The translations under genes were made by a program, and so were the position numbers. The notes beneath the pieces are model-generated. The model had not been told where the DNA came from. It made no database searches and worked only from the letters and a program-made list of their open reading frames with translations. Shown here in pieces: positions 9,817 through 27,144 of a stretch of 64,000 nt of DNA. Each line of letters starts with the position of its first letter. Position 1 is the first letter of the stretch. The stretch comes from Candidatus Heimdallarchaeota archaeon (GTDB lineage Archaea; Asgardarchaeota; Heimdallarchaeia; JABLTI01): NCBI GenBank assembly GCA_018238155.1, contig JABCTZ010000036.1, forward strand, positions 352,001 to 416,000, in the 5' to 3' direction.

Positions 9817-9853
9817 GTTCCAATATTCACACTTAAGCTTTATTCTTTGCAAC
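9817..9853 (-). CRISPR. Orphan degenerate CRISPR repeat
   Basis: GTTCCAATATTCACACTTAAGCTTTATTCTTTGCAAC matches the array repeat at 31/37 positions, ungapped, same orientation. Confidence 0.85.
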
Positions 9854-11585: not shown

Positions 11586-12617
11586 GTTTCAATACTCATA
11601 ATTGAGCTTTATTCTTTGCATCCCGATCTATTGACTCGTGATTTTGTAGCGACACAAGACGTTTCAATACTCATAATTGAGCTTTATTCTTTGCATCTTA
11701 CTAACCAATTGCTTCTTCTAGTTTCAGGTGAAAAACGTTTCAATACTCATAATTGAGCTTTATTCTTTGCATCCAAGCTAAAGCATCACGCAGTCGTCAT
11801 AGGAGCAACTCAGACGTTTCAATACTCATAATTGAGCTTTATTCTTTGCATCAAGTTTGTGATTTCTTATGGCTAAGTTACGCTATCAAGTTGTTTCAAT
11901 ACTCATAATTGAGCTTTATTCTTTGCATCACCAATGGCTTATCTGTGGATGGGAACAGCTTATTTTGTTTCAATACTCATAATTGAGCTTTATTCTTTGC
12001 ATCTTCATTTAGATCTGTTAGAACTTTTATCCATTTATCCTCGTTTCAATACTCATAATTGAGCTTTATTCTTTGCATCATTCCTTAATAAAAAGGTTAA
12101 CATCTCAGCAGTAAGATTGTTTCAATACTCATAATTGAGCTTTATTCTTTGCATCAAGTAATTTGGACGGTAATTTGTCAACTAACATTCTAAAGTTTCA
12201 ATACTCATAATTGAGCTTTATTCTTTGCATCCATAAATATCACCATCCTTAGTATCTTTCCATTCTAGGTTTGTTTCAATACTCATAATTGAGCTTTATT
12301 CTTTGCATCTACAAGTTTAACGACTCTAAAGCGCGCCTGGAGAGTAAGTTTCAATACTCATAATTGAGCTTTATTCTTTGCATCAATGAAAATTTCTCAG
12401 ATGATAAATGTCACTATTTGAGAGTAAGTTTCAATACTCATAATTGAGCTTTATTCTTTGCATCTGACTTGAAACACGCTAACTTGAGAGGCGCTAACTT
12501 GAGGTTTCAATACTCATAATTGAGCTTTATTCTTTGCATCACGATATAGACGCCACTAAAGGCGCAGGAAGTTTTTAATTGTTTCAATACTCATAATTGA
12601 GCTTTATTCTTTGCATC
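11586..12617 (-). CRISPR. CRISPR array: 14 identical 37-bp repeats, 13 spacers of 37-43 bp
   Basis: Plus-strand repeat GTTTCAATACTCATAATTGAGCTTTATTCTTTGCATC; on the minus strand it forms a GCUCA-auua-UGAGU hairpin followed by the 8-nt handle AUUGAAAC, which indicates minus-strand transcription. Confidence 0.98.
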
Positions 12618-12880: not shown

Positions 12881-13447
12881 CTAAGCTCTCCAACATTGTA
12901 ACCAAAATTCGCAGTCTTGGCATTTTTTTTCATTTGGTGTGGGAGAAGGAATAATCTCTTTAGTTACAATTTGCAACATTATTGTATGCTGCTCCAAAGC
13001 ATCTATTTTATCTCGCAGTGTAATAGGAATCTCAATTCGTTTATCGGCACCATAACGAATTTCAGCTTTATTTACATCCGTTTGAAAGATATTTTCAAGG
13101 ATAATGGCTTGAATAACGAGCTGAATTAAATGGTGTTGAGGTATTGTAGAATAGATCTTACCTGTTTTAAACTCAATTGGGTAGTAATCATTATTAGATT
13201 CTACATAGGCATCAAAAAGAGCTGCTAAACCTAAATCCGGCTCGACAATGAAACGATTATAATAGATCGTTGATTTTTCCAGTTTAGTTTGAGTTTTCTT
13301 TCGTATCTTTGAATCATGATAATCAGCTCCCTTCCTCATTTTGTAAGATATTCTAGGAAAGATCTTCTTAACATATCTAAAATAGATTATTCTTGGGCAA
13401 TAAATGAACTGTCGGAAATCTTCTGCAGTAAATTCAATGTTAGTCAT
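12881..13447 (-). CDS. cas4: CRISPR-associated exonuclease Cas4
   Basis: YCPR, D...PIEFK, QLVIQA, C-terminal KCQDCEFWLQC Fe-S cysteines. Confidence 0.95.
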   Translation of the reverse strand: MTNIEFTAEDFRQFIYCPRIIYFRYVKKIFPRISYKMRKGADYHDSKIRKKTQTKLEKSTIYYNRFIVEPDLGLAALFDAYVESNNDYYPIEFKTGKIYSTIPQHHLIQLVIQAIILENIFQTDVNKAEIRYGADKRIEIPITLRDKIDALEQHTIMLQIVTKEIIPSPTPNEKKCQDCEFWLQCWRA

Positions 13448-13761
13448 AAAATCACAACCTTTTCTTCTTCGAAACCAAACGCAGACTTCTGTTTGGTGAT
13501 CAATAGATCACTCATACCAATGTAGCTTATTTTTTCAAAACAACGAAAACATATTGGTATCACTACTACTTTCCCTAGTCTTTTTGCGAAAAGATCGCTT
13601 ATTTCCATGATGAGCATTTCAACCATATTTCTGGTTTGCTCTCCGGCAAAGACAGAAAATTGTATACGTTGGAAGCCATAGTTTTCACAAAGTTTGGCTG
13701 TTTTCGTTCGGAGAGAATCATTTGGGATGTCATAGCTTACAAGATAAAACAACAAAATCAC
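13444..13761 (-). CDS. cas2: CRISPR-associated endoribonuclease Cas2
   Basis: YLVSYDI, RIQFSVF, IPICFRC. Confidence 0.95.
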   Translation of the reverse strand: MILLFYLVSYDIPNDSLRTKTAKLCENYGFQRIQFSVFAGEQTRNMVEMLIMEISDLFAKRLGKVVVIPICFRCFEKISYIGMSDLLITKQKSAFGFEEEKVVIL

Positions 13762-14796
13762 CTACCTTTTCAGACTAAATGGTTGATAATTCTCTATGTC
13801 TCCTCTGAAGAATTTTCCTGCAGATCGAGCTTGATGTATGATATGTTGTTCAAATGACATATTTTTGTCTGTGTGTTGATTTGTTTCCTTTTGAGTAAAA
13901 GTTTTGATTAATTCTGAAAGGAAATGTTTTTTGAAATCATTCTTAAGCTTACAAAATTGACCTTGTATATCGAAATCATCAGGAGATACCTCAGACTTTC
14001 CTACAAGCCTGAGGATCAATCTATCTACAATTGGTTGTCTAAACTCCTCAATTATATCCAAAACAAAGGATGGTTTCCCGCTTCGGTCAGTATGTAAAAA
14101 ACCGGCATAGGGTTCTAAACCGGCGATTAATACTCCAGAAAGCACTTTCATCGTCAAAATTGCATAAGCATAACTGAGCATGCTATTAATAGGATCCTTG
14201 GGTGGGCGACGATTCCTGTTAGTAAAGGTAAATTCAGCGGGGATTAATTCCTTAAAAGCAGTAAAATAAGCATCTGCTGCTGCACCTTCAAAAGCAAAAA
14301 TACTTTCACGGTGAAAAGTAATTTTACGACTCATTTTTAATGATAAGTCTTTTTCCAAATAGCTTTCCAATTCTTTGCTTTTACTCTTTACTATTGAATT
14401 TGCTCGAACACTTAATTGTCTATTCTTCTGAATTCTTCGCAGAAGATTACGCTTATTTGTTATTGCACCCCTTAGAGCACTAAGAATAAACCTTGTTCCA
14501 ACAGATGATTCATATGCTAAAATCTGCGCTCTTCGTGTTGCTACCGTTCCATGAGCAACATAAGAATGTAAAATTCCAACAGGTTTTCCACCTCGGAAAA
14601 ATAATGCTGGAACACCATTTGCTGTTAACAAATCAATTGCACCTGATGTTAGTGTTGCTTTTGATTCGATAATTAACTGTTCAAGCTTCATTATTGGAAT
14701 ATAATTTTTAGCCAAGTCTTTGGAAGGATAAGTAACATAAAGTCTTTCACCTTCTTTGCCAATCTTAGCCCCATGCTCTGCAATAATAAGTATCAT
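13762..14796 (-). CDS. cas1: CRISPR-associated integrase Cas1
   Basis: EGAAADAYF, RNRRPPKDPINSMLSYAY, GFLH, DIIEEFRQPIVD. Confidence 0.97.
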   Translation of the reverse strand: MILIIAEHGAKIGKEGERLYVTYPSKDLAKNYIPIMKLEQLIIESKATLTSGAIDLLTANGVPALFFRGGKPVGILHSYVAHGTVATRRAQILAYESSVGTRFILSALRGAITNKRNLLRRIQKNRQLSVRANSIVKSKSKELESYLEKDLSLKMSRKITFHRESIFAFEGAAADAYFTAFKELIPAEFTFTNRNRRPPKDPINSMLSYAYAILTMKVLSGVLIAGLEPYAGFLHTDRSGKPSFVLDIIEEFRQPIVDRLILRLVGKSEVSPDDFDIQGQFCKLKNDFKKHFLSELIKTFTQKETNQHTDKNMSFEQHIIHQARSAGKFFRGDIENYQPFSLKR

Positions 14797-14824: not shown

Positions 14825-15787
14825 TTAATCTGTTGTTAGAACCTCCAAGCCTTTCAAATGAGAAAGGTTGTATGCATAAACAACTTCTTCTGAAGTTTGT
14901 TGCTCTACAGGTTGCACTAGCACAATATTTCCACGAGAATAGACCACTTCACCGGCAAGCGTATTTGGGAATGAAACAGTTTTAATTTTGCGATTAGTTC
15001 CTATTTGCCCCCAAGTATCAAGTAAGTCTATATTGGTAATTTTACAATCAGGATAAAGTTCCAGTAATTGCTCCGCATAATCATAGAGTGAAACTATTTC
15101 AGAGGTTTTTTCATAGTTCGTTAGTAATTGTATCTTATCAGCAAAAGTAAGGAAAGTAGTTAGATGAAGCTGGTCAGCAATCATTGCTTCAGCAGCAAGA
15201 ACATTTTCTAAAGAACTAAATTTTGAGAGCACTAATGCTTCATCTAATCCTTGTTCAATTAAACGATAATATTTACCTTCACTTCTTCTACAATTGCTTA
15301 TCCCAACTTTGATTTTATTACCAAATCGACCAAGATAAAGATAATGATCACTATAGCATCTTGCATGCTTCCAAGCTAGTTGACAAGGATAACTTTCAAG
15401 AGTACACTTGACATCGAAAGGTTTACCTGGACCCTCGAAAATACACCTTTGACATTTATATATCAATGAATCTCTACAGAGATCACATATTGCATCTCGA
15501 GTTGCACGTGGTATAATTTCATCACAATACGAGCATCGCTTCAAACCAAACTCTAAGAAGAGAGTTCCATCTAAAGGTATGGTATAACTAAGTCCATCAC
15601 CTTGATCAACCAAAAGTTGCAAAGATTTAGACCCAACACCAAGCTTCCACAAATATCGTCGAATTATTGGTGAGTCACTTACACATATTTCTTCTCTAGA
15701 AGAAAGAACACGGTTATTTGATATTTTCCCTTTGATAATCACTTTGCTAACACCAAGTGATGTATAACAATGAAAATTAAAGAACAA
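14825..15787 (-). CDS. DUF2797-like Cys-rich protein with GIY-YIG-like motif
   Basis: CSYC/CDLC/CQRC cluster then HYLYLG..KIKVGIS..RLIEQG..AE; the real start may be downstream of 15787. Confidence 0.75.
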   Translation of the reverse strand: MFFNFHCYTSLGVSKVIIKGKISNNRVLSSREEICVSDSPIIRRYLWKLGVGSKSLQLLVDQGDGLSYTIPLDGTLFLEFGLKRCSYCDEIIPRATRDAICDLCRDSLIYKCQRCIFEGPGKPFDVKCTLESYPCQLAWKHARCYSDHYLYLGRFGNKIKVGISNCRRSEGKYYRLIEQGLDEALVLSKFSSLENVLAAEAMIADQLHLTTFLTFADKIQLLTNYEKTSEIVSLYDYAEQLLELYPDCKITNIDLLDTWGQIGTNRKIKTVSFPNTLAGEVVYSRGNIVLVQPVEQQTSEEVVYAYNLSHLKGLEVLTTD

Positions 15788-16035: not shown

Positions 16036-17595
16036 ATGTTGACAGGATATACACAAATACGATATAGCTGGTATATTCCTTTACCACAAATATTTACACA
16101 TGATACTTTAATAAATCAAGATTTTAGATGGATTATGAAGAATAACTTATCAAGTGAAGAAATTAAGACAAATCAAGCAATTATTAGAAATTTTGGAAAA
16201 TTACGTTTTGATAAGACAATGACTTTTCCACTTGTATCTCAAGATAATCAAGTTAGAACCTTTAAAGAAATTCCGTTTTCGCCCCTATGTTTCACTTCAA
16301 CAGAACAGAAAAAAACCGTTTTTGAATTTTGTAATTCACATTCGGAAAGTACTCAAACTGATATGAAAATTGAATCAGTCAAATTCTCAATTCAATTATA
16401 TCCAATTGGTTTTGGAGTAATTATTGCATATGTTAACTTTAGAGAAATAATTGAACCAGAAATAATTAATCATTTTGTTGATAAACTTAAATGTGGTAGA
16501 AAAAAGAAATCAATGACAAAATATGCTCATTACCTTAAAAAGCAGTTATTGAAAAGCCTTTTTCAAGAAAAAGAAATAGCCAATATTAGAACTGTTTGTC
16601 AAGGACCAAAGATTAGAGTAAACTTTATTGATCAATGTTTTTCCGAACAGAAATTTAATGACTATGCCAAAAAAATACTTGGCACTAAAAACTCTGAAAC
16701 AAAAATCCTTTTTAGATTTAATAAGAAAACAGATGATTTAACTGCTTTTTATAAAAAGGGGCTCGTGGTCTTTTCTAGCATGGACCTTTCTAGAGGAAGA
16801 AGAAGTTATTTTAGAAAAAACCTTGATTTTATAATGGATGTTTTTTATGGTGCAAATTTTCTTCTTCCGTTGATACCTTCAATAATTACTAAAGCTGATA
16901 GCATAAATAGATATGGCAAAATGAAAAAACTAATCTCTACTATCTTTTTAACGCTTAATCCACAAATATTAGAATCCAAAAATGAGCTTGATTCACTTCT
17001 TCCTACTGCAGGTTTACGATTGTGGTTTAGACTTTTTAATAAAATATTTCATTATACAGAAAATTACTCCCTGCATCTTGAAAAGATAATTGCACAAATA
17101 AATGAAATGCGTGTGGATAAATGGTATGAGCTTATTACTTCATCATTAAAGGAGAACATACCCATTGTTTCAGATCTCTTATTAAAAGATTTCAAAAAAC
17201 AAAACTATTCGATTAGAGAAATAATTACTCCAAAAATACAATTAGATGAAAGGAACAAAGAAATAATTGACTTTATGCTAGAAAGAATAACAGCTGATTT
17301 TACGAGTCGTTTTGGCTTTAATAGAAACACTCAGTTATCAAAGGATAAATTAGGATTTTGTACACTGAATGTCATTGAAAGAACTTTAGGCATTACAGGA
17401 AGAAAACATATGGAATTCAAAAATAGATTAGATCTACTTAGTAGAGTAGGTTTATTAGAAGCTGAAGCTTACAGAGGTCCTGGTTCAAGAAAAGATAGTG
17501 TGCAATATAGAGCATCACCTAGCCATCCTTATGTAGACACACATTTGAGAGTAAAATTAGCAAAAGAATCAATATCTGAACTCAAACTAAGATAG
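16036..17595 (+). CDS. Unknown protein with C-terminal winged HTH (candidate cas regulator)
   Basis: TLNVIERTLGI..FKNRLDLLSRVGLLE..GPGSRKDSVQYR wHTH pattern. Confidence 0.6.
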   Translation: MLTGYTQIRYSWYIPLPQIFTHDTLINQDFRWIMKNNLSSEEIKTNQAIIRNFGKLRFDKTMTFPLVSQDNQVRTFKEIPFSPLCFTSTEQKKTVFEFCNSHSESTQTDMKIESVKFSIQLYPIGFGVIIAYVNFREIIEPEIINHFVDKLKCGRKKKSMTKYAHYLKKQLLKSLFQEKEIANIRTVCQGPKIRVNFIDQCFSEQKFNDYAKKILGTKNSETKILFRFNKKTDDLTAFYKKGLVVFSSMDLSRGRRSYFRKNLDFIMDVFYGANFLLPLIPSIITKADSINRYGKMKKLISTIFLTLNPQILESKNELDSLLPTAGLRLWFRLFNKIFHYTENYSLHLEKIIAQINEMRVDKWYELITSSLKENIPIVSDLLLKDFKKQNYSIREIITPKIQLDERNKEIIDFMLERITADFTSRFGFNRNTQLSKDKLGFCTLNVIERTLGITGRKHMEFKNRLDLLSRVGLLEAEAYRGPGSRKDSVQYRASPSHPYVDTHLRVKLAKESISELKLR

Positions 17596-17976
17596 AAAAT
17601 AAGATTCCTCCTCGTTTAAAATGAGGAAACCTGCTGTCAAATCAAATGGTTTCTCTAAATAGCTATTTAGCGTTAATCTTTAGCAGTATGGGAATAGTTT
17701 ATATAATGAAATGTTAAAAGTAGTTACAATATAAAAACAAATAAGAAATAAATTGATACTAATTGTTTCTTGGAAATAGGAATAAAGAAGTTAATATTAT
17801 GAAAACTGCATCATTATTCGATTTCACTGGAAATGCATTCGTCACTATACTGGAATAGCGACAATATGTGCGCTATTTAACAAAGAGAGTTTACAGGATT
17901 AAATATCGATGATCATAATGTCACATTAACTTTGTTTATGATATCTACTCTGAAAAACGATGGAGAGCAACTATTT

Positions 17977-19626
17977 ATGATTCTTAAAACTATAATGGAA
18001 ATCGGTAAGTCAATCAAGGAAGATGTTACAGATACTTTAGAAGAATTACAACGCCACTCCCCTAATTTAGGATCTGATATTATTCATTACATAAGAGAAG
18101 AGTATGGTTATTCAAAGAAGTGCAAAAATTATATTGTTGTAAAAATAGCAATTAACCCCTTCATTTCTAGGCTAAATGAATTCCTAGATAAATGTAGCAG
18201 AAACACAAATCTAACAGAATTAATCTCAGATGATTTGATAAAAATCAAATTGAATAAAAATAAACGACAAGAGATATTTGAGAGATTATACTCAAAAGTT
18301 GATCCAAATCTCATTATCGACTTGCAGCAAAAGGCAATTAAAGTTGAATTAAGAGATTTTGACTATAATGAATTTGATGATATAAAACTGTTGTTAGGAA
18401 ATCAGCATGGAACAACAATCTTTTATTCACCAGTCATGTATCAATCAGTTTCAAAAAGTTTAGTAACCGAGTTACCTATGTGGAAAATCAAACTCAGTAC
18501 AGAGGATAAAGTAAATTCTAGCTTTTTCGATAAACTTCCAACAATCACTGAGTATAATACAATAACTAAAATATCAAGTGAATGCATAAGGAAGGTGTTT
18601 ATCTCTGATATTTTTCTATCTGTAATAAATGATTATCTAAAGGATATAGGGCTTAAAAGTTCGAAGTATTACATAGTCTTTCTACTTGGAAAAGGTAATC
18701 TCCAAGAAGTTAAAGATTATCCTTATGAAATTGAATCATTTGTTGATTATTACAATTCCAAAATTTCAGGTACTGATGAAGGTCCGCGAGGTTTGTGTGA
18801 ACTATGCTTAGAAAAGAAGCCTGTTATACCTGGTCCTAAATCTAAGATTGGATTCTATACTGATGATCCAAAGGGAAATGTTCCTATCCACCTTAACAAT
18901 ACTTACACAATATGCAAAGAATGTAATTCTTATCTTATTGCAGGACGTAATTTCATAAAAAGTAACTTACGATTTAAGCTAGCAAATCGTGGTACTAAAA
19001 GGAAACCCAAAAATCCATTGTTTGCTTATTTTATTCCATACACAGATGATAATGATAATTTGTCAGAAATTTTGAATTTCTTTAAAATACTGGAAAAGAA
19101 GGATAAAGAGGGATTAGAAGGATTAGTTCGAAAAGAAATCATTACAAATGAATTTCTGTATGTAATGGAATCTCGAATGAATGAGGATGATCATCGAATA
19201 ATACAAGATAGTTTAGATTTTCTTATGATTCCATTCAAGTTACATTTCTCTTTACTAATAATCATCTTTTATCATCCGGAAGGACAAGCTAGTTCCTTCC
19301 ATAGCGTGAAGAGGATAATATATTTGAATTCAAATGATATTGACAGAATAAATAATGCTTATAAAAAATTGAAAGATAGAAATAGAACATTTTCTCTTAA
19401 ATCCCTTTTCTACCTATTTGGAGAGTATAAAATAGAGAAGTATATCTTATCGTTTCTGGAACTACGCAAGATGAATAAGCGTATACTATATAAAGATGCA
19501 TACATGATGCTGAAAAGGGGTTTCTTGAGAGATGCTTTAAATCCCGATAAAACATCAACTATAAGACCTACAATGTTTACTTTTACATCATTTTTATACT
19601 TGCTTAAGGAGTTGAAACTATTATGA
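17977..19626 (+). CDS. cas8b: Cas8b-like large subunit (TM1802/Csh1-like) lacking the C-terminal helical bundle
   Basis: MILKTIMEIGK start, Zn finger CELC..FYTDD..ICKEC, AYFIP; located upstream of cas7. Confidence 0.75.
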   Translation: MILKTIMEIGKSIKEDVTDTLEELQRHSPNLGSDIIHYIREEYGYSKKCKNYIVVKIAINPFISRLNEFLDKCSRNTNLTELISDDLIKIKLNKNKRQEIFERLYSKVDPNLIIDLQQKAIKVELRDFDYNEFDDIKLLLGNQHGTTIFYSPVMYQSVSKSLVTELPMWKIKLSTEDKVNSSFFDKLPTITEYNTITKISSECIRKVFISDIFLSVINDYLKDIGLKSSKYYIVFLLGKGNLQEVKDYPYEIESFVDYYNSKISGTDEGPRGLCELCLEKKPVIPGPKSKIGFYTDDPKGNVPIHLNNTYTICKECNSYLIAGRNFIKSNLRFKLANRGTKRKPKNPLFAYFIPYTDDNDNLSEILNFFKILEKKDKEGLEGLVRKEIITNEFLYVMESRMNEDDHRIIQDSLDFLMIPFKLHFSLLIIIFYHPEGQASSFHSVKRIIYLNSNDIDRINNAYKKLKDRNRTFSLKSLFYLFGEYKIEKYILSFLELRKMNKRILYKDAYMMLKRGFLRDALNPDKTSTIRPTMFTFTSFLYLLKELKLL

Positions 19627-20921
19627 AAAAGGAGTCGAAACTACAACTACTAGGATCATTAGCAAGTAAATTGCAGAGCTTGGAGGATATAATACGTTCT
19701 AAGGTTATTACAAAGAATCTTTATAGTTTGCTCAAGATGGTTGAAATGGTAGAACGAGATCCCATAAAGATCGAAACAGTAACCAATTTCTTGGAAAAGA
19801 GGTTAAACAATCATTTTCCAAATAGAGCCATCAAAGTTCTTGAAAACAAATTAGAAAGGGAAATTTTAGATGATCTTGAAAAGCAAAAATTAAAAAAGCA
19901 AATCATTAGTGTAAAACGTTCTTACAAGCTTATAACTAAAATCAAAAATGATGATTTACTAACATTTAATTATACGCCTTTTTTTGATTTCATCATCGGT
20001 TATGATAATCTTTCAGAAAACAAGAAATTTCTGTTAAATGGTGATGGTGAGTCTTGGATAGAGAGATGGCATAGTTATCCCTATCTAAAAGAAAATCCTA
20101 ATAATTTCGTAGTTTTTTGTTTAGGTAGATACTATTCTCTTATGAGTATGAAGCAAATCGATAAGCTAACTGAAACTATTCTCTTAAGGAAAAGCACTAG
20201 TTGGTATAAAAACCTAAACTTTAGCAAACTGCTGAAAATCTTTGCTGAAATCACTAAAGCAGGAGCTCTCATTTCTCTGAATGAGAGTAAAGAGAAGGAA
20301 AAAGAGGAAAACAGTAATGAGAGTTCTAAAGAACACAATCTAATCCCTTTTAGGAGATTTAGACAATTTATTGAGTATTATTTACTTACTGAATATTTTG
20401 AAAATAACAATCAAGGATTTGATCAAAACATAAATACATTTCTATTTGGTGCAGGATTTTTTCTACAGAAAAAACCAGAAAAAGTCGATTTGAAAATTTC
20501 AACCATTTTAGAAATGGTTAAGTGGGATAAACCCAATCAAATAGCTGGATTCCTACTTGGCAAGTTGTTCTCTATATACTCCTATTCTGAGTTTGAGGAT
20601 TTAAATACTCGTTCCTACAAGAAGTTAGCTAAAAAAATTCAACTAGCTGAAATAGGCAATCACCCAGAAATAATGTCTTACATTTTTATGATTGCTTTCA
20701 GAATACTTGCGAAAAAAGATGCAAAGATGGAAAAGGAAACCAAAGGGACGAATAAGAACCATTGGTTATATACAAATGTAAAATACCTAAGTCATATCGA
20801 ATATTACATGAAACTCGTAATAAAAAATGACCTTCTCGAAAATATGAATGATAAATACGAAGATGCATTAACGTTTATGACAGGTTATCAATACTATAAA
20901 AAGAGTGATGAAAATGACTGA
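19623..20921 (+). CDS. Protein of three tandem Cas11/Cas8b-C-terminal-like helical units
   Basis: LLGSL..FIIGY (aa 9-127), FCLGRY..FLFGAG (165-278), FLLGKL..FMTGY (310-422). Confidence 0.65.
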   Translation: MKKESKLQLLGSLASKLQSLEDIIRSKVITKNLYSLLKMVEMVERDPIKIETVTNFLEKRLNNHFPNRAIKVLENKLEREILDDLEKQKLKKQIISVKRSYKLITKIKNDDLLTFNYTPFFDFIIGYDNLSENKKFLLNGDGESWIERWHSYPYLKENPNNFVVFCLGRYYSLMSMKQIDKLTETILLRKSTSWYKNLNFSKLLKIFAEITKAGALISLNESKEKEKEENSNESSKEHNLIPFRRFRQFIEYYLLTEYFENNNQGFDQNINTFLFGAGFFLQKKPEKVDLKISTILEMVKWDKPNQIAGFLLGKLFSIYSYSEFEDLNTRSYKKLAKKIQLAEIGNHPEIMSYIFMIAFRILAKKDAKMEKETKGTNKNHWLYTNVKYLSHIEYYMKLVIKNDLLENMNDKYEDALTFMTGYQYYKKSDEND

Positions 20922-21861
20922 AAAAGACAATGAAAAAATAATTGAAAAAAGAAAGGAATTAATCTTTCTATATTCTGTTAAGGATGCAAATCCAAATGGC
21001 GACCCAGATGACGAGAACCGTCCTAGGACTGATCTTAATGGATATAACATCGTTTCTGATGTACGGTTAAAACGAACAATTCGAGATTATCTCATTGATA
21101 ACGGTGAATCAGTAATAATAAGACGAAAATACACAAATGAAAATAAAGTCAAGAATATTGAAGGTCTTATTACTGATTTTCTTCAGAAAGAAATTACACG
21201 TGAAAAGATTCTAGATAAAATACCAAAGGAATTTATTGATGTGAGATTATTTGGCTTAATGGCAGCAGTAGAAAATGCCAGTTGTGCTATTACAGGACCT
21301 GTCCAATTTGCCATCGGAAAGTCTTTGAATATTCCCGATATATCAACTCATTCAATAACTTCGGTAATGGCTGCAGGTACTGGTAAAGGTGGTGGAGCTA
21401 TGGGTTCATTCCATGTAGTTGATTACTCTCTGATTGCATTCGAAGGAGTTGTATGTCCAAATTTAGCAAAGATATCAAAGTTAACTCATAGTGATGTCTG
21501 TAAGCTCTTTAAAGCGATCTGGATGGGAACAAAGACAATTAATACAAGAAGCAAATTTAATCATATACCTCAATTGCTTATTTCTGTTAATTCAAATAAT
21601 AGTGAATTCCTTATTGGGGATTTAGCTTATCGATTAAAAATCGATGGAGAAAAACCGAACTTTAGAATTAAGCTTGATGATTTCATCAGTCGCATAAGTA
21701 AATTCGCTGAAGATGGAAAATCACAAATCGAATCAATAAGTTATTGCCAAGATCCTGATCTAATATTAAGTTTTGATGGAAAAGAAGATACTTTCGAAAA
21801 TATTATAGCTAAAATAAAAATTCCTGTCGAAAAAATGACTTTTAACTGTGGTGCTAAGTAA
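20914..21861 (+). CDS. cas7: Cas7 (Csh2/Cas7b)
   Basis: ANPNGDPDDENRPR, VSDVRLKRTIRDYL, DVRLFG, ITGPVQF. Confidence 0.95.
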   Translation: MTEKDNEKIIEKRKELIFLYSVKDANPNGDPDDENRPRTDLNGYNIVSDVRLKRTIRDYLIDNGESVIIRRKYTNENKVKNIEGLITDFLQKEITREKILDKIPKEFIDVRLFGLMAAVENASCAITGPVQFAIGKSLNIPDISTHSITSVMAAGTGKGGGAMGSFHVVDYSLIAFEGVVCPNLAKISKLTHSDVCKLFKAIWMGTKTINTRSKFNHIPQLLISVNSNNSEFLIGDLAYRLKIDGEKPNFRIKLDDFISRISKFAEDGKSQIESISYCQDPDLILSFDGKEDTFENIIAKIKIPVEKMTFNCGAK

Positions 21862-22640
21862 TTACTACAAAAGTCATTTGTTTTGATATTTGTGCTCCAT
21901 TTGCTACCTTTCGAACACCAGATACGACAAGGGGATATTTAACATTCCCTTTTCCTCCCCGAACAGCTATAGTTGGTTTCCTTGGAGCCATCATGGGTAC
22001 AAAGAAAAGAAATGCTATCTATTCTAGTAAACACTATTTGTCTAAAACAAGAATTGCTTTGCAAGTAGTAAAGAAACCAAGGATGTTAGCTTATAAGACT
22101 AACTATTTTCGTACAAAAAAAATCATGAATATATCAAAAGGTGCTAAAATATACATTCCAATGGATGTTGAAGACAGAGGCGTACGATCTCCTGTAAATA
22201 TTACCCTTTTACAAGATGTTCACTACAGGTTATTCATAGATATGCCTAAAGAAAAGTATGAAGAACTCAAACGTCGCTTGATAAATCATGAAACCGTTTT
22301 CCCAGTATATCTTGGTCATGCAAATATGAGAGCCTATTTCAATTATATTGGTGAAATCGAAATTAAAGAGAATAACGATAACGAAGTTGAATTATTAAGC
22401 TTGTCTAGAGCTGAGCAAATTAAAAACCTTCAACAAGGTGAATTTACAATTATAATGAGTGTACCATTCGATTATGATTACATAGAGAAAAATGACCGAA
22501 TAGAATTATCTCAATTAGCCAATGTTGTTTATCATATCGAGCCTATAAAAGTAAAATTAGCAATTGCTCCTCAAGAATCTTATAAGATTGTAAAGTCACC
22601 AATTGAAGAACAGCTAAACAAATCATTGGTTTTTATTTGA
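21861..22640 (+). CDS. cas5: Cas5 (type I-B), probable ATT start
   Basis: Canonical N-terminus FDICAPFATFRTP..TFPFPPRTAIVGFLGAIMG is in frame upstream of ATG 21993; also VYLG. Confidence 0.9.
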   Translation: MTTKVICFDICAPFATFRTPDTTRGYLTFPFPPRTAIVGFLGAIMGTKKRNAIYSSKHYLSKTRIALQVVKKPRMLAYKTNYFRTKKIMNISKGAKIYIPMDVEDRGVRSPVNITLLQDVHYRLFIDMPKEKYEELKRRLINHETVFPVYLGHANMRAYFNYIGEIEIKENNDNEVELLSLSRAEQIKNLQQGEFTIIMSVPFDYDYIEKNDRIELSQLANVVYHIEPIKVKLAIAPQESYKIVKSPIEEQLNKSLVFI

Positions 22641-22646
22641 ACAGAA

Positions 22647-25232
22647 ATGGGATTGCTAATGTTTGAAGTTGATACGAATAATGTCGAAAGTTTAAAAGAA
22701 ATTATCTCAATGTTGCTTGAGAACACAAAGATTAAATTAGACCTAGCAGCACCATGTCAAACACTAGTTGAACATACAACTAACATGCTGAAAGCATTCA
22801 AAAGTAATAGTAAGCACTTGATACCAAATTCACATATAATAGATGATGAGTTATGGGTTAAATTAATGCAAATAACAATTATTTTTCATGATATTGGCAA
22901 ACTAAACCTTTTTTTTCAACTCTTTATAATTTCAAAAAGAAAGGATTATGATGAAATAAAGGGAGAGTTTAAAACTATAATCCAAGCTAAAGATAGTTAC
23001 GAGCATCTTTTAGATGTGCGCTTCAATAAAAAATACAGAAGACATACGATAGAATCTGCAATCTTAGCTTACTACTTTCTAACCGAGATTTGCAATAAAT
23101 TATTCAAAGATAAAAACATCATTAGAGTTTTTATGAATGCAATTCTGACACATCATTCAGGGCATATGAAATTACCAGAAAAAATGTCTGATTTAAGATT
23201 TTATTTAACTCGTTTAAGAAGCGGAAATCAGAAAGAACTATGGTCCCTTTTCTACACATTCTTGAAAAAGTCATCTTACCTAATGGATATAGCTAATATA
23301 ATTACCGATATAGAATTAAAGAATCTATTTGAGGAATTCCATGAACGTATTGAGAATGACAGCTCCTTAGAGAGCTATTTTCTTAGGAATGGAATTAAAG
23401 AAATAATAAGAGATATGTTCTTTGATGGAACATGCATCTCTCAAAGCAATAATAGTTCGTTCATACATCTAGTACAATATACTTCATCAGTACTATACGA
23501 TCTTGATGAATGGGATGCAATTACAAATAGGAATACTAACTTGGATTCTATGGAAATTTCTTTCGATATCACTAGAAAAGAAACTAATCAACGTTTAATT
23601 GATGATTACATAAAAGAAAATACAAATGATTCTCCTTTGAATCCAATAAGAGAATCTTTTTTGAAAAACACTCGAGCTCAATTCAGCACAATCAAGATTG
23701 AAGAGAAGAGAATTTTTCGGATGATTGCTCCAACAGGAGCTGGTAAAACACTTAATCTTCTATCCGCGGCATTTAGTTTAAAGGAACAAGTTCATTCAAA
23801 TTACGGTTTTTATCCAAAGATAATCTACGCATTACCATTTATTTCTATTTGTGATCAGATTGAAATGATTCTATCTGAATTGCTAGAAACAACTTCTCAA
23901 ACATCAGAGCTCACAGTTCATCACTATCTCAGTAATTTTCAAAAAGATAGAAGTAATGATATGGAAGACGAATACGATTTCTTATCTCCATATGAAATTC
24001 GGCTTTGGAGGTCAGATTTTATTGTCACAACAACTATTAAGCTTTTCTACACCATTTTGCACTTTTACAAAAACAAAGTTAAAAGATTTCATCGTTTGTG
24101 TAATTCAATAATTATTATTGATGAGTATCATTCATTGCCAATAAAGTACCAGAATTTAGTTAAGAAAGTTATAGAGAATCTTACAAGAAACTTTAATGTT
24201 TACTTCATTATAGCAACAGCAACAGCTCCAGCAATATTTGAAAATACCGAATGCAAGGATTTAGTTGACAACAAACTCTTCATGGAATTGAATAGATATT
24301 GGATAAATTACATCAAAGAACCAAAAACACCGAGTGAGTTTTTCGATTATGTTTCTAATCAGATAAAGATGCATCAAAATGAAAATATAATGATTGTTGT
24401 TAACACACGGAATCTCGCTCGAAACCTATTTCTTCATTTGCAGGGATTAAGTAGCGATGAAACGATTGATAGCGATAACTTATTGCATCTATCCGGTAAT
24501 ATGCTACCGAATCACAGAAAAAGAACTATCAGCGAAGAAATTTTACCTAGATTAAAGAATAGAAAAAATACCATATTAGTTACCACGCAATTAATTGAAG
24601 CAGGTATCGATATTGATTTTGATTACATTATAAGAGAATTATCACCATTTAGCTCGATTGTTCAAACAGCAGGTAGATGTAATCGTCATAATAAGAAAAA
24701 TGAAGATGAAATTCCTGAAATAAGTTTGGTCAAAGTAAAAGATGTACCAAATCCTTATGATCCAATAGATCTTGGGGTTACAATAGAGACACTAGATAAT
24801 CTAAAAGGATTATGTAGTAGCACAAAACTAACTGAAAATTTCATTAGAAAGAACTATCAAGTTTATACTAATGCATTAAACAAAAGAAGAGCAAAGTCTG
24901 ATTTGCTTGTTGAATATAAAGATTGTGAATATGAAGAATTATCTGATAGATTCAAGTTAATCAATGATAGCAATCGTTATCCTCTTGTTATTATCCCCAA
25001 AGAGCAAGGGGCAGATGAAGTAGTTTCAGCTATTCAAAAAGTCAAAGATAAACGTTACATATCGAAAGTAATCTGGGTTAATTCTATATCAATTAGTAAA
25101 AGTCAATTAGTAGATAGATTTAGGAAAAACTTAGAGATGATTGAAGATAAAGACATTGTACTATATATCTTGGATTTACGTAAAAATGAGGATTTCTACC
25201 GAAATGATATCGGATTATATATTGAAACATGA
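22647..25232 (+). CDS. cas3: Cas3 HD nuclease-helicase
   Basis: HDIGK, HH, APTGAGKT, DEYH, TTQLIEAGIDID, QTAGRCNRH. Confidence 0.97.
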   Translation: MGLLMFEVDTNNVESLKEIISMLLENTKIKLDLAAPCQTLVEHTTNMLKAFKSNSKHLIPNSHIIDDELWVKLMQITIIFHDIGKLNLFFQLFIISKRKDYDEIKGEFKTIIQAKDSYEHLLDVRFNKKYRRHTIESAILAYYFLTEICNKLFKDKNIIRVFMNAILTHHSGHMKLPEKMSDLRFYLTRLRSGNQKELWSLFYTFLKKSSYLMDIANIITDIELKNLFEEFHERIENDSSLESYFLRNGIKEIIRDMFFDGTCISQSNNSSFIHLVQYTSSVLYDLDEWDAITNRNTNLDSMEISFDITRKETNQRLIDDYIKENTNDSPLNPIRESFLKNTRAQFSTIKIEEKRIFRMIAPTGAGKTLNLLSAAFSLKEQVHSNYGFYPKIIYALPFISICDQIEMILSELLETTSQTSELTVHHYLSNFQKDRSNDMEDEYDFLSPYEIRLWRSDFIVTTTIKLFYTILHFYKNKVKRFHRLCNSIIIIDEYHSLPIKYQNLVKKVIENLTRNFNVYFIIATATAPAIFENTECKDLVDNKLFMELNRYWINYIKEPKTPSEFFDYVSNQIKMHQNENIMIVVNTRNLARNLFLHLQGLSSDETIDSDNLLHLSGNMLPNHRKRTISEEILPRLKNRKNTILVTTQLIEAGIDIDFDYIIRELSPFSSIVQTAGRCNRHNKKNEDEIPEISLVKVKDVPNPYDPIDLGVTIETLDNLKGLCSSTKLTENFIRKNYQVYTNALNKRRAKSDLLVEYKDCEYEELSDRFKLINDSNRYPLVIIPKEQGADEVVSAIQKVKDKRYISKVIWVNSISISKSQLVDRFRKNLEMIEDKDIVLYILDLRKNEDFYRNDIGLYIET

Positions 25233-26340
25233 GTTCCCAATAATTGCAGAGAAAATTGATGGGAATTGGTGTTTTTGGTCAATAGAAAACATAACAACCA
25301 AAATTTGTGAAATTGTCGATGAGTTTCCCCATTTAAATGGTTTAGATGAGTCATTAATGAAAGATCTCACTGAGCAATTTAGACTTTTTAACTATATAAT
25401 AAAACCGGATAGAGTAACTAGAGAATATATTCTGGATTGTTGCGACTTGGATTTTTTAAAAAATGAACAAGTAAAAAACGAAGAAGGAATTATAATACCC
25501 TTTCAAGATTTCAAAGATCAACTAAAAGATTATGAAATCAGTAAGTATACAAACCCAGTATATTTAGAGTGTGATTATTTTTGTATAGAAATTATTCCAA
25601 ACTCAGAATCAATTATTTGCAAATATCTAATATTCACAAAATCTAGACAATTATGTAATAATGAATTTAATTGTGATAAGGTTCAATGTATGAATCTCTC
25701 ACTCATATTGGGAATACAATATATCCAAGTGGAGTTTATGTATCAACTTTTTAAAGTTTTTTTTAATCTAAACTTTGAGTTATTTTATAGAATAACTGGT
25801 TATTTTCTAACAGAAAATAAAGAATATCAATCAATATCTTCTGAGGATGACTATGAAGTATTAAAAAATTCAATTGAAAACTTGCCCGATGTTATTTGGG
25901 ATAAAAGCAAGTTTCGGTATGGTTTCCTAGCAGGATACTATTGGCGAGATCAAATAAAGCTACTAAAGCATATATTAGAAATCTTATTATCGATATTTGA
26001 AGAAAAAGAAAAAGAATCGAAACCCACTCAATTTATAATTGAAGCAATAACTGAATTTACTGATAAGATCAACAGTTTTAATGATTTAGAAGAGCTCCAA
26101 AATAAAAGGAACAATCACGCACACATTATATTCGAAATTAACAGTATGTCAGAGTTAAAAGAGACATTGCCTAATAATAACACAAAAGAGATATTTATTG
26201 AGTTTTGTAAAAAACGGGAGTTAAAAGTACAATTACTAGAACTTATTAAGACAATATCAAACAAGCTTTTTAGGAATGACAAACAAGGATTACTTATTAA
26301 ACTTATACAAAAATGTTTACAAAAAAAAGGGACAGTATAA
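25186..26340 (+). CDS. Unknown protein embedded between cas3 and cas6
   Basis: Long ORF overlapping the cas3 end and 3 bp from cas6; start uncertain (25141, 25186 or 25204). Confidence 0.6.
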   Translation: MRISTEMISDYILKHEFPIIAEKIDGNWCFWSIENITTKICEIVDEFPHLNGLDESLMKDLTEQFRLFNYIIKPDRVTREYILDCCDLDFLKNEQVKNEEGIIIPFQDFKDQLKDYEISKYTNPVYLECDYFCIEIIPNSESIICKYLIFTKSRQLCNNEFNCDKVQCMNLSLILGIQYIQVEFMYQLFKVFFNLNFELFYRITGYFLTENKEYQSISSEDDYEVLKNSIENLPDVIWDKSKFRYGFLAGYYWRDQIKLLKHILEILLSIFEEKEKESKPTQFIIEAITEFTDKINSFNDLEELQNKRNNHAHIIFEINSMSELKETLPNNNTKEIFIEFCKKRELKVQLLELIKTISNKLFRNDKQGLLIKLIQKCLQKKGTV

Positions 26341-26343
26341 ACC

Positions 26344-27144
26344 ATGTACAATTTTATATTCATGTTGGAAACAAAATCGAATTGTTTACTACCATCTTTT
26401 ACAGGGCAAATAATTCGAGGAGCTTTACTTAGCACGATAAATGAATTTGATGCAACATTTGCAGAAAAACTCCACAAAGGGAATGATATTAGACCCTATG
26501 CTGTTTCACCTCTCATGGGTCATGAGGGAAGATTAAATCGAACAAGAAGAAATGAAATCATTGTTAGCAAAGATAGAACCTATAAGTTTCGCATGGGTAT
26601 TCTTTCAAGTGATTTAGCTGAACAAATGATTAAGATTTCTTTGCAAAATGATAAAATGCGATTGCAACTTGCTGATGCTAAGTTCACTGTTTCGAGTATC
26701 GAAATTAAGAAAAAAACTATAAAAGAACTACTTGACTGTGATGACCAACAATCAAAATTTATTGAACTTTCTTTCCTTACACCCTCATGTTTCAATATAG
26801 CTGGTAAGGATTTTCCCATGAGATTTCCTGATCCTAGATTTCTTTTTATGAACCTAGCTACTTTGTGGAACACTTTCAATGAAGAACAAGTTTTTATAGA
26901 TAGGTCTGAATTTTTTACTTGGCTTGAAAGCAATATTTCAATTAACAGATATAAATTAAGCACTCATAGGGTCTATACAGCTAAGAATACTCCCAAAATT
27001 GGTTTTAAGGGGTTTATTCGATACAGACTTTCAGATGACAATAAATATCAATCATGGATTCATGCACTCGCACAGTATGCAGAATTTAGTAATGTAGGAT
27101 CCAATAGAACTGCAGGGTTAGGGTGTGTTAAGTATATTCGATAA
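26344..27144 (+). CDS. cas6: Cas6 crRNA endoribonuclease
   Basis: LH..RPYAVSPL, FLTP, GFKG, Gly-rich loop NVGSNRTAGLG. Confidence 0.95.
   Translation: MYNFIFMLETKSNCLLPSFTGQIIRGALLSTINEFDATFAEKLHKGNDIRPYAVSPLMGHEGRLNRTRRNEIIVSKDRTYKFRMGILSSDLAEQMIKISLQNDKMRLQLADAKFTVSSIEIKKKTIKELLDCDDQQSKFIELSFLTPSCFNIAGKDFPMRFPDPRFLFMNLATLWNTFNEEQVFIDRSEFFTWLESNISINRYKLSTHRVYTAKNTPKIGFKGFIRYRLSDDNKYQSWIHALAQYAEFSNVGSNRTAGLGCVKYIR

Follow-up and report, generated by a model that had tools for sequence, protein, structure and literature searches.

A Split cas8b Gene and a Proposed Single-Chain Array of Cas11-Like Units in a Type I-B CRISPR-Cas Locus of a Heimdallarchaeota Archaeon

Organization of the Locus

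We analyzed a stretch of 64,000 nucleotides (nt), hereafter the window, from a Candidatus Heimdallarchaeota archaeon (assembly GCA_018238155.1, contig JABCTZ010000036.1, positions 352,001 to 416,000 of the forward strand), which carries a CRISPR-Cas locus whose large-subunit gene, cas8b, appears to be divided in two. On the plus strand, the N-terminal part of cas8b (cas8b-N; 17977..19626), which encodes a large subunit without the Cas11-like C-terminal domain and with a conserved CxxC...CxxC pair, is followed by a gene for a protein of 432 amino acids (aa; 19623..20921), read here as three tandem Cas11-like helical units and proposed to form a single-chain array of the small subunit of the effector complex, Cascade. 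This second open reading frame (ORF) overlaps both of its neighbors, the stop of cas8b-N by 4 nt (ATGA) at its beginning and the start of cas7 at its end. An earlier annotation of this DNA, made by a model from the letters alone (the sequence-only reading), had described the same ORFs, including the overlapping 432-aa frame. Downstream on the same strand are cas7 of the type I-B Csh2 family (20905..21861; TIGR02590, E 1.5e-59, 201.8 bits against a curated cutoff of 171.55), cas5b (21859..22640), cas3 with an HD nuclease fused to the helicase (22647..25232; PADLOC Cas3b, E 6e-124; TIGR01587 and TIGR01596), and cas6 (26344..27144; TIGR01877, E 4.8e-21).

The adaptation genes cas4 (12881-13447; NCBIfam TIGR00372, E 5e-26), cas2 (13444-13761; NCBIfam TIGR01573, E 1e-15), and cas1 (13762-14796; NCBIfam TIGR00287, E 2e-75) lie on the minus strand, next to a CRISPR array (11586..12617) of 14 identical 37-nt repeats and 13 spacers of 37-43 nt. 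Because the reverse complement of the repeat has ATTGAAAC at its 3' end, the array is probably transcribed on the minus strand. The locus therefore holds the gene set of type I-B, namely cas8b, cas7 (Csh2), cas5b, a fused HD-helicase cas3, cas6, cas1-cas2-cas4, and an array, with cas8b represented by its N-terminal body only; judged by predicted gene content, it is a complete type I-B CRISPR-Cas locus. An assignment to type I-A, or to a hybrid of types I-A and I-B, was rejected in view of the single HD-helicase Cas3, the best agreement of Cas7 and Cas5 with I-B models, and the lack of any I-A model among the matches.

The Cas8b Body and Its Missing C-Terminal Bundle

The cas8b-N frame is open from a TTG at 17932 to 19626; because every homologue starts at the Met whose codon is at 17977, we took the gene as 17977-19626. 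Its product matched the PADLOC Cas8b model PDLC01343 (E 1.5e-13) over profile positions 31-410 of 535 only. Stand-alone small genes of related loci, described below, occupied positions 426-535 of the same model, and the whole profile was covered by full-length Cas8b (620-684 aa) encoded in genomes belonging to the same class. Since Cas8b-N stops at position 410 and the small genes fill 426-535, the C-terminal bundle is missing from the window protein, which bears out what had been read from the ORF itself. The relation to Cas8b was also seen when the cas8b-N family alignment was compared with the full-length Cas8b of its relatives (hhalign probability 97.5%, P 4.9e-12). In addition, an AlphaFold2 (AF2) model of Cas8b-N, with a predicted local distance difference test score (pLDDT) of 74, had as its top Foldseek match Cas8c (8dfs_I; E 5.4e-4, probability 0.97), followed by Cas8b of a type I-B CRISPR-associated transposon (8fcj_I) and then by 8g9t_K. 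Taken together, profile comparisons through intermediates and comparative genomics support a cas8b gene split at the junction of the N-terminal body and the Cas11-like C-terminal helical bundle, as the sequence-only reading had claimed.

At another locus (L015, G014:C92, 711-2526), a Cas8b of the full-length group is spread over two ORFs, one of 543 aa (profile positions 1-367) and one of 216 aa (profile positions 395-535); a split of this kind appears to have occurred there separately.

A Rare Gene Pair in Seven Loci

A word-indexed protein search with the 432-aa protein returned only the query, and the same kind of search with an alignment returned only 3 proteins. By an exhaustive HMMER search of 1.8 billion representatives, five relatives were recovered; one homologue is labelled Candidatus Helarchaeota. 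Further loci were taken from the contigs of Cas8b-N homologues and HMMER relatives (L001-L005) and from a search of the phylum (L019); a related-locus search with a 3-row alignment yielded no relatives, either from metagenome or from genome contigs. The pair of cas8b-N and the three-unit gene was thus found in seven loci (the one in the window, L001-L005, and L019), in each case upstream of cas7-cas5-cas3. In the six other loci, a homologue of 420-470 aa comes after a Cas8b-N of 535-566 aa, usually overlapping it by 4 nt, and cas7, cas5, and cas3 come next, so that the three-unit gene lies between cas8b-N and cas7 in all of them, as in the window. The members of the three-unit family share 22-46% identity with the window protein and are collinear with it end to end. 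A search for homologues beside short cas8b genes had been suggested as a check on the sequence-only reading, and the recovery of the pair in seven diverged loci answers it in the affirmative. By these comparisons, the family is rare but conserved. One member (L005, 6355-7691) is broken into ORFs of 84 aa and 361 aa at a run of seven A, as a result of either a frameshift or an assembly error.

Neither the 432-aa protein nor its single units gave a meaningful family match in Pfam, NCBIfam, or PADLOC, and the Csa5 and Cse2 profiles did not match the protein. Profile searches of Protein Data Bank (PDB) sequences with two family alignments found nothing, and a feature search of the ESM Atlas with residues 143-432 gave no usable match. 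The lack of a curated family and the very small number of homologues among billions of proteins are what might be expected of a decaying or chance ORF, or of an accessory protein outside Cascade. However, the position and frame of the gene were kept in seven diverged loci, where it overlaps or abuts cas8b-N and cas7; its product is homologous to genes of the Cas8b C-terminal-domain type (see below); and no other Cas8b or Cas11-like gene able to supply the small subunit was found in the window genome, which is 90.7% complete. We therefore regard such an origin as extremely improbable.

Three Units within the 432-aa Protein

In the family alignment, the protein was cut into unit 1 (residues 1-135; 19623..20027, plus strand), with five helices, an LG motif at its start, and F..GYD at its end; unit 2 (residues 143-290; 20049..20492, plus strand), which is Cas11-like by profile and, of the three, stands nearest to the stand-alone small-subunit genes; and unit 3 (residues 291-432; 20493..20918, plus strand), likewise Cas11-like and predicted to dock on the last helices of Cas8b-N. 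The glycines by which the sequence-only reading had marked the units (G11, G126, G168, G276/278, G313, and G421) are all located within the motifs it gave for them. Its count of three units stood, but their length of about 110 aa did not, as the units actually measure about 135-148 aa.

When unit 2 was compared with unit 3 by hhalign, the alignment ran from end to end over 127 columns, with a probability of 92.9-93.7% and P 1.9e-7 to 3.7e-7, and the P of the reversed control was 0.56; the internal repeats that had been proposed are thus above chance for these two units. The AF2 model of the whole protein (pLDDT 77; predicted template modeling score, pTM, 0.81) is all-helical; its main helices number five in each unit (3 x 5 overall) and follow the order long-short-long-long-short. 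The linkers 132-142 and 230-237 were modeled with low confidence, and one homologue has a 30-aa insertion in the linker between units 1 and 2. Fold searches with the whole model gave no informative match. All three units are basic in 7/7 members, with isoelectric points (pI) of 8.0-9.9. With 432 aa and three units, the protein departs from the usual single-domain Cas11 of roughly 100-170 aa, of which each Cascade holds several copies.

A chain of this kind might instead be a precursor, from which internal starts or proteolysis free Cas11 proteins of one or two units that assemble as free subunits. According to papers from 2025-2026, types I-A and I-E have a distinct cas11 gene, and in-frame internal translation is the rule for Cas11 in types I-B, I-C, and I-D (PMC11899642, PMC13199841), a point on which the sequence-only reading agrees with these reports and with PMC11096372; the linkers between the units are also predicted to be flexible. 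However, neither unit boundary has a conserved Met in the alignment of the seven members, and this speaks against internal initiation as a routine event. The divergence among the three units far exceeds that of orthologous units between loci, so fixed, position-specific roles fit better than interchangeable subunits, and the pTM of the AF2 model suggests a defined arrangement of the units. On this evidence, a precursor appears very unlikely.

Linking the Units to Cas11 through Stand-Alone Small Genes

The family profile of the 432-aa protein was searched in 400 genomes of the phylum. The full three-unit protein was present in the window genome and in one other (G161) only, and eight further genomes were matched at profile positions ~130-230 only. 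Each of the latter matches was a stand-alone ORF of 139-171 aa, with a cas8b-N of ~500 aa on one side and cas7 on the other. In hhalign comparisons, for which reversed controls all gave P > 0.1, these small genes matched unit 2 with a probability of 98.6% (P 7e-16, 114 columns; reversed control P 0.21), unit 3 with 96.6% (P 6e-10, 108 columns), and the C-terminal region of full-length Cas8b with 97.3% (P 1.8e-11, 135 columns). A pooled profile of units 2 and 3 and the small genes matched the Cas8b C-terminal domain with P 8e-10, and single small ORFs found matches at the very C-termini of three PADLOC Cas8b models that are independent of one another (E 2e-8 to 2.6e-4). A Cas8b of the TM1802 type in one genome (G091) has the same domain at its C-terminus (hhalign 99.5%, P 3.8e-22; Pfam PF09484, E 2e-16). 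In the solved type I-B Cascade of Synechocystis, Cas11b is identical to the C-terminal portion of Cas8b (PMC11096372). Because units 2 and 3 match the small genes, which in turn match the Cas8b C-terminal domain and hence Cas11b, these results support the view that both units are Cas11b-type modules, the strong path running through the stand-alone small genes. Both these profile comparisons, made through intermediates, and comparative genomics therefore support the claim that the gene after cas8b concatenates Cas11-like units.

A more distant case was observed in another genome (G143), where a 477-aa protein is encoded upstream of cas7b-cas5b-cas7b-cas3b. Its residues 31-99, 191-246, and 337-467 matched the profile of the stand-alone small genes with P 1.7e-6, 1e-5, and 4.7e-5, respectively; by these matches, its N-terminal unit is clearly Cas11-like, and we count it as an eighth, more distant protein containing three Cas11-like units. 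The surrounding locus (L032, G143:C435, 1-6947) is an I-B-like effector locus with two different cas7b genes flanking cas5b, and the contig ends before any cas8.

We also built a maximum-likelihood tree of the N-terminal part of Cas8b from 24 rows, with the columns of the C-terminal domain removed by a 50% fill rule. In this unrooted tree, a branch sets apart each of three groups, the nine full-length rows, the eight rows with a single small gene, and the seven three-unit rows; the two split groups stand together with a support of 99 in the Shimodaira-Hasegawa-like approximate likelihood ratio test (SH-aLRT), and the support of the three-unit group is also 99. Such a topology fits one split of cas8b followed by one triplication.

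Unit 1 and the Strength of the Three-Unit Reading

Taken together, we consider it likely that Cas8b has been split at the boundary of body and bundle and that the small-subunit module has been triplicated within one 432-aa protein. Several points weigh against this proposal. The alignments are all shallow, with 7-9 sequences; the direct match of units 2 and 3 to the Cas8b C-terminal profile is weak (P 0.016-0.021); and the Cas11 fold of the units rests on profile homology via intermediates together with helix count. Unit 1, moreover, gave no significant hhalign match when compared with unit 2 by itself (P 0.15) or with the stand-alone small genes by themselves, to which it aligned over just 12-33 columns (P 0.008-0.013).

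These last two results would suit a different structure, in which only units 2 and 3 are Cas11 and unit 1 is an unrelated adaptor of four or five helices, for example one contacting Cas6, Cas7, or Cas3, so that the protein would be a Cas11 dimer with an added head. It would also suit an unrelated adaptor that unit 1 found no match in the N-terminal unit of the G143 protein (P 0.54) and that a wide structure search paired it with generic helical bundles only. Other comparisons speak against an adaptor. Against the pooled profile, unit 1 reached a probability of 70% and P 4e-5 over 70 columns (helices 1-3), in register at the LG motif, compared with P 0.2 for the reversed control and P >= 0.025 for six decoy windows of 140 residues from the Cas8b-N family. 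Unit 1 is collinear with unit 3 over 110-119 columns, with a weak match (P 6e-4 to 0.014), and it has in common with the small genes the order of five helices, the LG motif, and an end motif, F..GY(D), that in unit 1 (F..GYD) resembles theirs; the G143 protein, too, opens with a unit of Cas11 type. We therefore think that unit 1 is probably, not certainly, a diverged third Cas11-like copy; its identity has moderate support and is less secure than that of units 2 and 3, and an unrelated adaptor in its place seems unlikely.

Other Genes and Features of the Locus

The reading frame of cas5b is open from 21859, and its first 45 residues from that position align with the full-length Cas5 of related loci, while the first ATG, GTG, or TTG is found only at 21993. 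Either an unusual start codon is used or this Cas5 is short at its N-terminus; a frameshifted cas5 was rejected, as the frame is open and aligned with full-length Cas5 and only a canonical start codon is missing. Between cas3 and cas6 lies an ORF of 399 aa on the plus strand (25141-26340) that is assigned to no family, no family match having been obtained. A 410-aa ORF occupies the equivalent position in L002; the two have in common only a short R-N-x-x-x-H stretch, found at matching relative places (residues 315-330 and 323-338, respectively), and their BLAST comparison was not significant.

Immediately upstream of cas1, a gene of the DUF2797 family (14825-15787, minus strand; Pfam PF10977, E 3e-11) was observed, and such a gene is also found beside cas1 in L005 (431-1345). 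A gene for a 519-aa protein (16036-17595, plus strand) is located between the adaptation and effector modules; it had no match in Pfam, NCBIfam, or PADLOC and is assigned to no family. A degenerate copy of the CRISPR repeat (31/37 bases; 9817-9853) lies 1.7 kb past the array in unchanged orientation.

Predicted Contact with Cas8b-N and a Proposed Mechanism

Complex prediction of Cas8b-N with the 432-aa protein gave an interaction prediction score from aligned errors (ipSAE) of 0.68, compared with 0.00 for the best of three controls; the mark applied to this score was reached by 58/80 solved complexes and by 2/110 mismatched pairs, counts that apply only approximately, since the alignments used were the author's own. 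At least 91% of the contacts agreed between runs, and the pLDDT of the partner was at least 79. The predicted interface joins residues 501-544 of Cas8b-N, its last helices, with residues 295-341 and 410-424 in unit 3. Because the pair would be the two halves of a split gene, this pass may reflect likeness to solved Cas8 structures; the prediction supports binding of the two proteins and is no demonstration of it.

We proposed the following mechanism. The 432-aa chain would be translated by coupling to cas8b-N through the ATGA overlap, and unit 3 would dock on the last helices of Cas8b-N, in the place of the missing C-terminal domain. Units 2 and 1 would then continue along the inner face of Cascade (the belly), opposite the Cas7 filament, where the basic units would hold the displaced non-target strand and stabilize the R-loop ahead of the recruitment of Cas3. 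One chain would thereby supply the three belly modules that other Cascades build from the Cas8 C-terminal domain and free Cas11, with a stoichiometry set genetically and without internal translation. The pI of the units is as expected for contact with the displaced strand, and together with the predicted contact to Cas8b-N it gives only indirect hints of belly lining and of non-target-strand binding.

In its full form, this proposal takes the one chain as the whole small-subunit row, each unit being adapted to its own position, with unit 3 replacing the Cas8b C-terminal domain and units 2 and 1 acting as Cas11.1 and Cas11.2, a possibility on which we lean slightly to the side of doubt. The Cascade structures of types I-C and I-E have three belly modules in all. 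In the Synechocystis type I-B Cascade, seven Cas7 face a belly of four modules, one of them the Cas8b C-terminal domain and the other three Cas11b (PMC11096372). By analogy with the four modules of that solved I-B complex, three units may not fill the belly alone for spacers of 37-43 nt, which also tells against the proposal.

Novelty and Implications

The only cases returned by full-text literature searches for tandem or fused Cas11 were fusions of one Cas11 domain with Cas7, Cas10, or a nuclease, and the 2025 classification update mentions no tandem Cas11 in type I. A split of cas8b alone is not new, as other type I-B loci have a cas11 gene standing alone, and it is the three-unit chain that appears to be undescribed; the suggestion of an undescribed architecture in the sequence-only reading thus holds as far as this literature shows.

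How well type I systems are understood, and how far they can be used, is limited by the copy number and supply of Cas11. The hidden internal start for the small subunit in types I-B, I-C, and I-D often fails in foreign hosts; assembly of the Thermotoga maritima Cascade in Escherichia coli, for example, failed unless cas11 was supplied as a gene of its own (PMC13199841). From a natural single-chain Cas11 array it would follow that the Cascade belly tolerates covalent linkage and that the sequence at each position can evolve separately, and it would offer a template for simpler expression constructs of fixed stoichiometry. Within one archaeal phylum, the loci would also form a stepwise series, from a fused Cas8b through Cas8b-N with one Cas11 gene to Cas8b-N with a three-unit chain, that could be used to study the fusion and specialization of class 1 effector subunits. 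If one chain does make up the whole row, it would be the gene, and not assembly or internal translation, that determines how long the belly is and in what stoichiometry it is built, and the protein would parallel, in type I, those subunit fusions by which multi-subunit type III effectors moved towards single-protein ones.

Comparison with Known Systems

The closest known counterpart is the internally translated Cas11b of type I-B, as in the Cascade of Synechocystis PCC 6714 (PDB 8H67/8IP0), in Haloferax volcanii, and in systems of the T. maritima TM1802 type. The modules of the window protein belong, through intermediates, to the same domain family, the C-terminal helical bundle of Cas8b, and the operon has the same content of cas8b, cas7 (Csh2), cas5b, fused cas3, and cas6; by analogy, the expected role would likewise be belly formation, support of the non-target strand, and retention of Cas8b (PMC11096372, PMC13199841). 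However, the Cas8b of the window has neither the C-terminal domain nor a nested cas11 frame, and the module is encoded by a separate gene as three strongly diverged copies in one chain.

Like the stand-alone cas11 genes (Csa5 in type I-A, Cse2 in type I-E, and the small genes of the sister I-B loci L020-L028), the 432-aa protein has its own gene directly after that of the large subunit, and with the sister loci it shares an identical split point and a grouping of Cas8b-N (SH-aLRT 99). The sister genes, however, encode one unit of 139-171 aa, several copies of which must assemble, whereas here three units are covalently linked. The type III fusions, namely Cas7-11 (III-E), III-D/III-Dv, and III-I, resemble the protein in that subunits that otherwise repeat are joined in a single chain, so that their number and order are fixed. 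In those fusions, Cas7 domains are combined with a single Cas11 domain in RNA-targeting systems (PMC12669027), whereas in the window the Cas11 row alone would be fused, in a DNA-targeting type I system in which Cas7 stays free.

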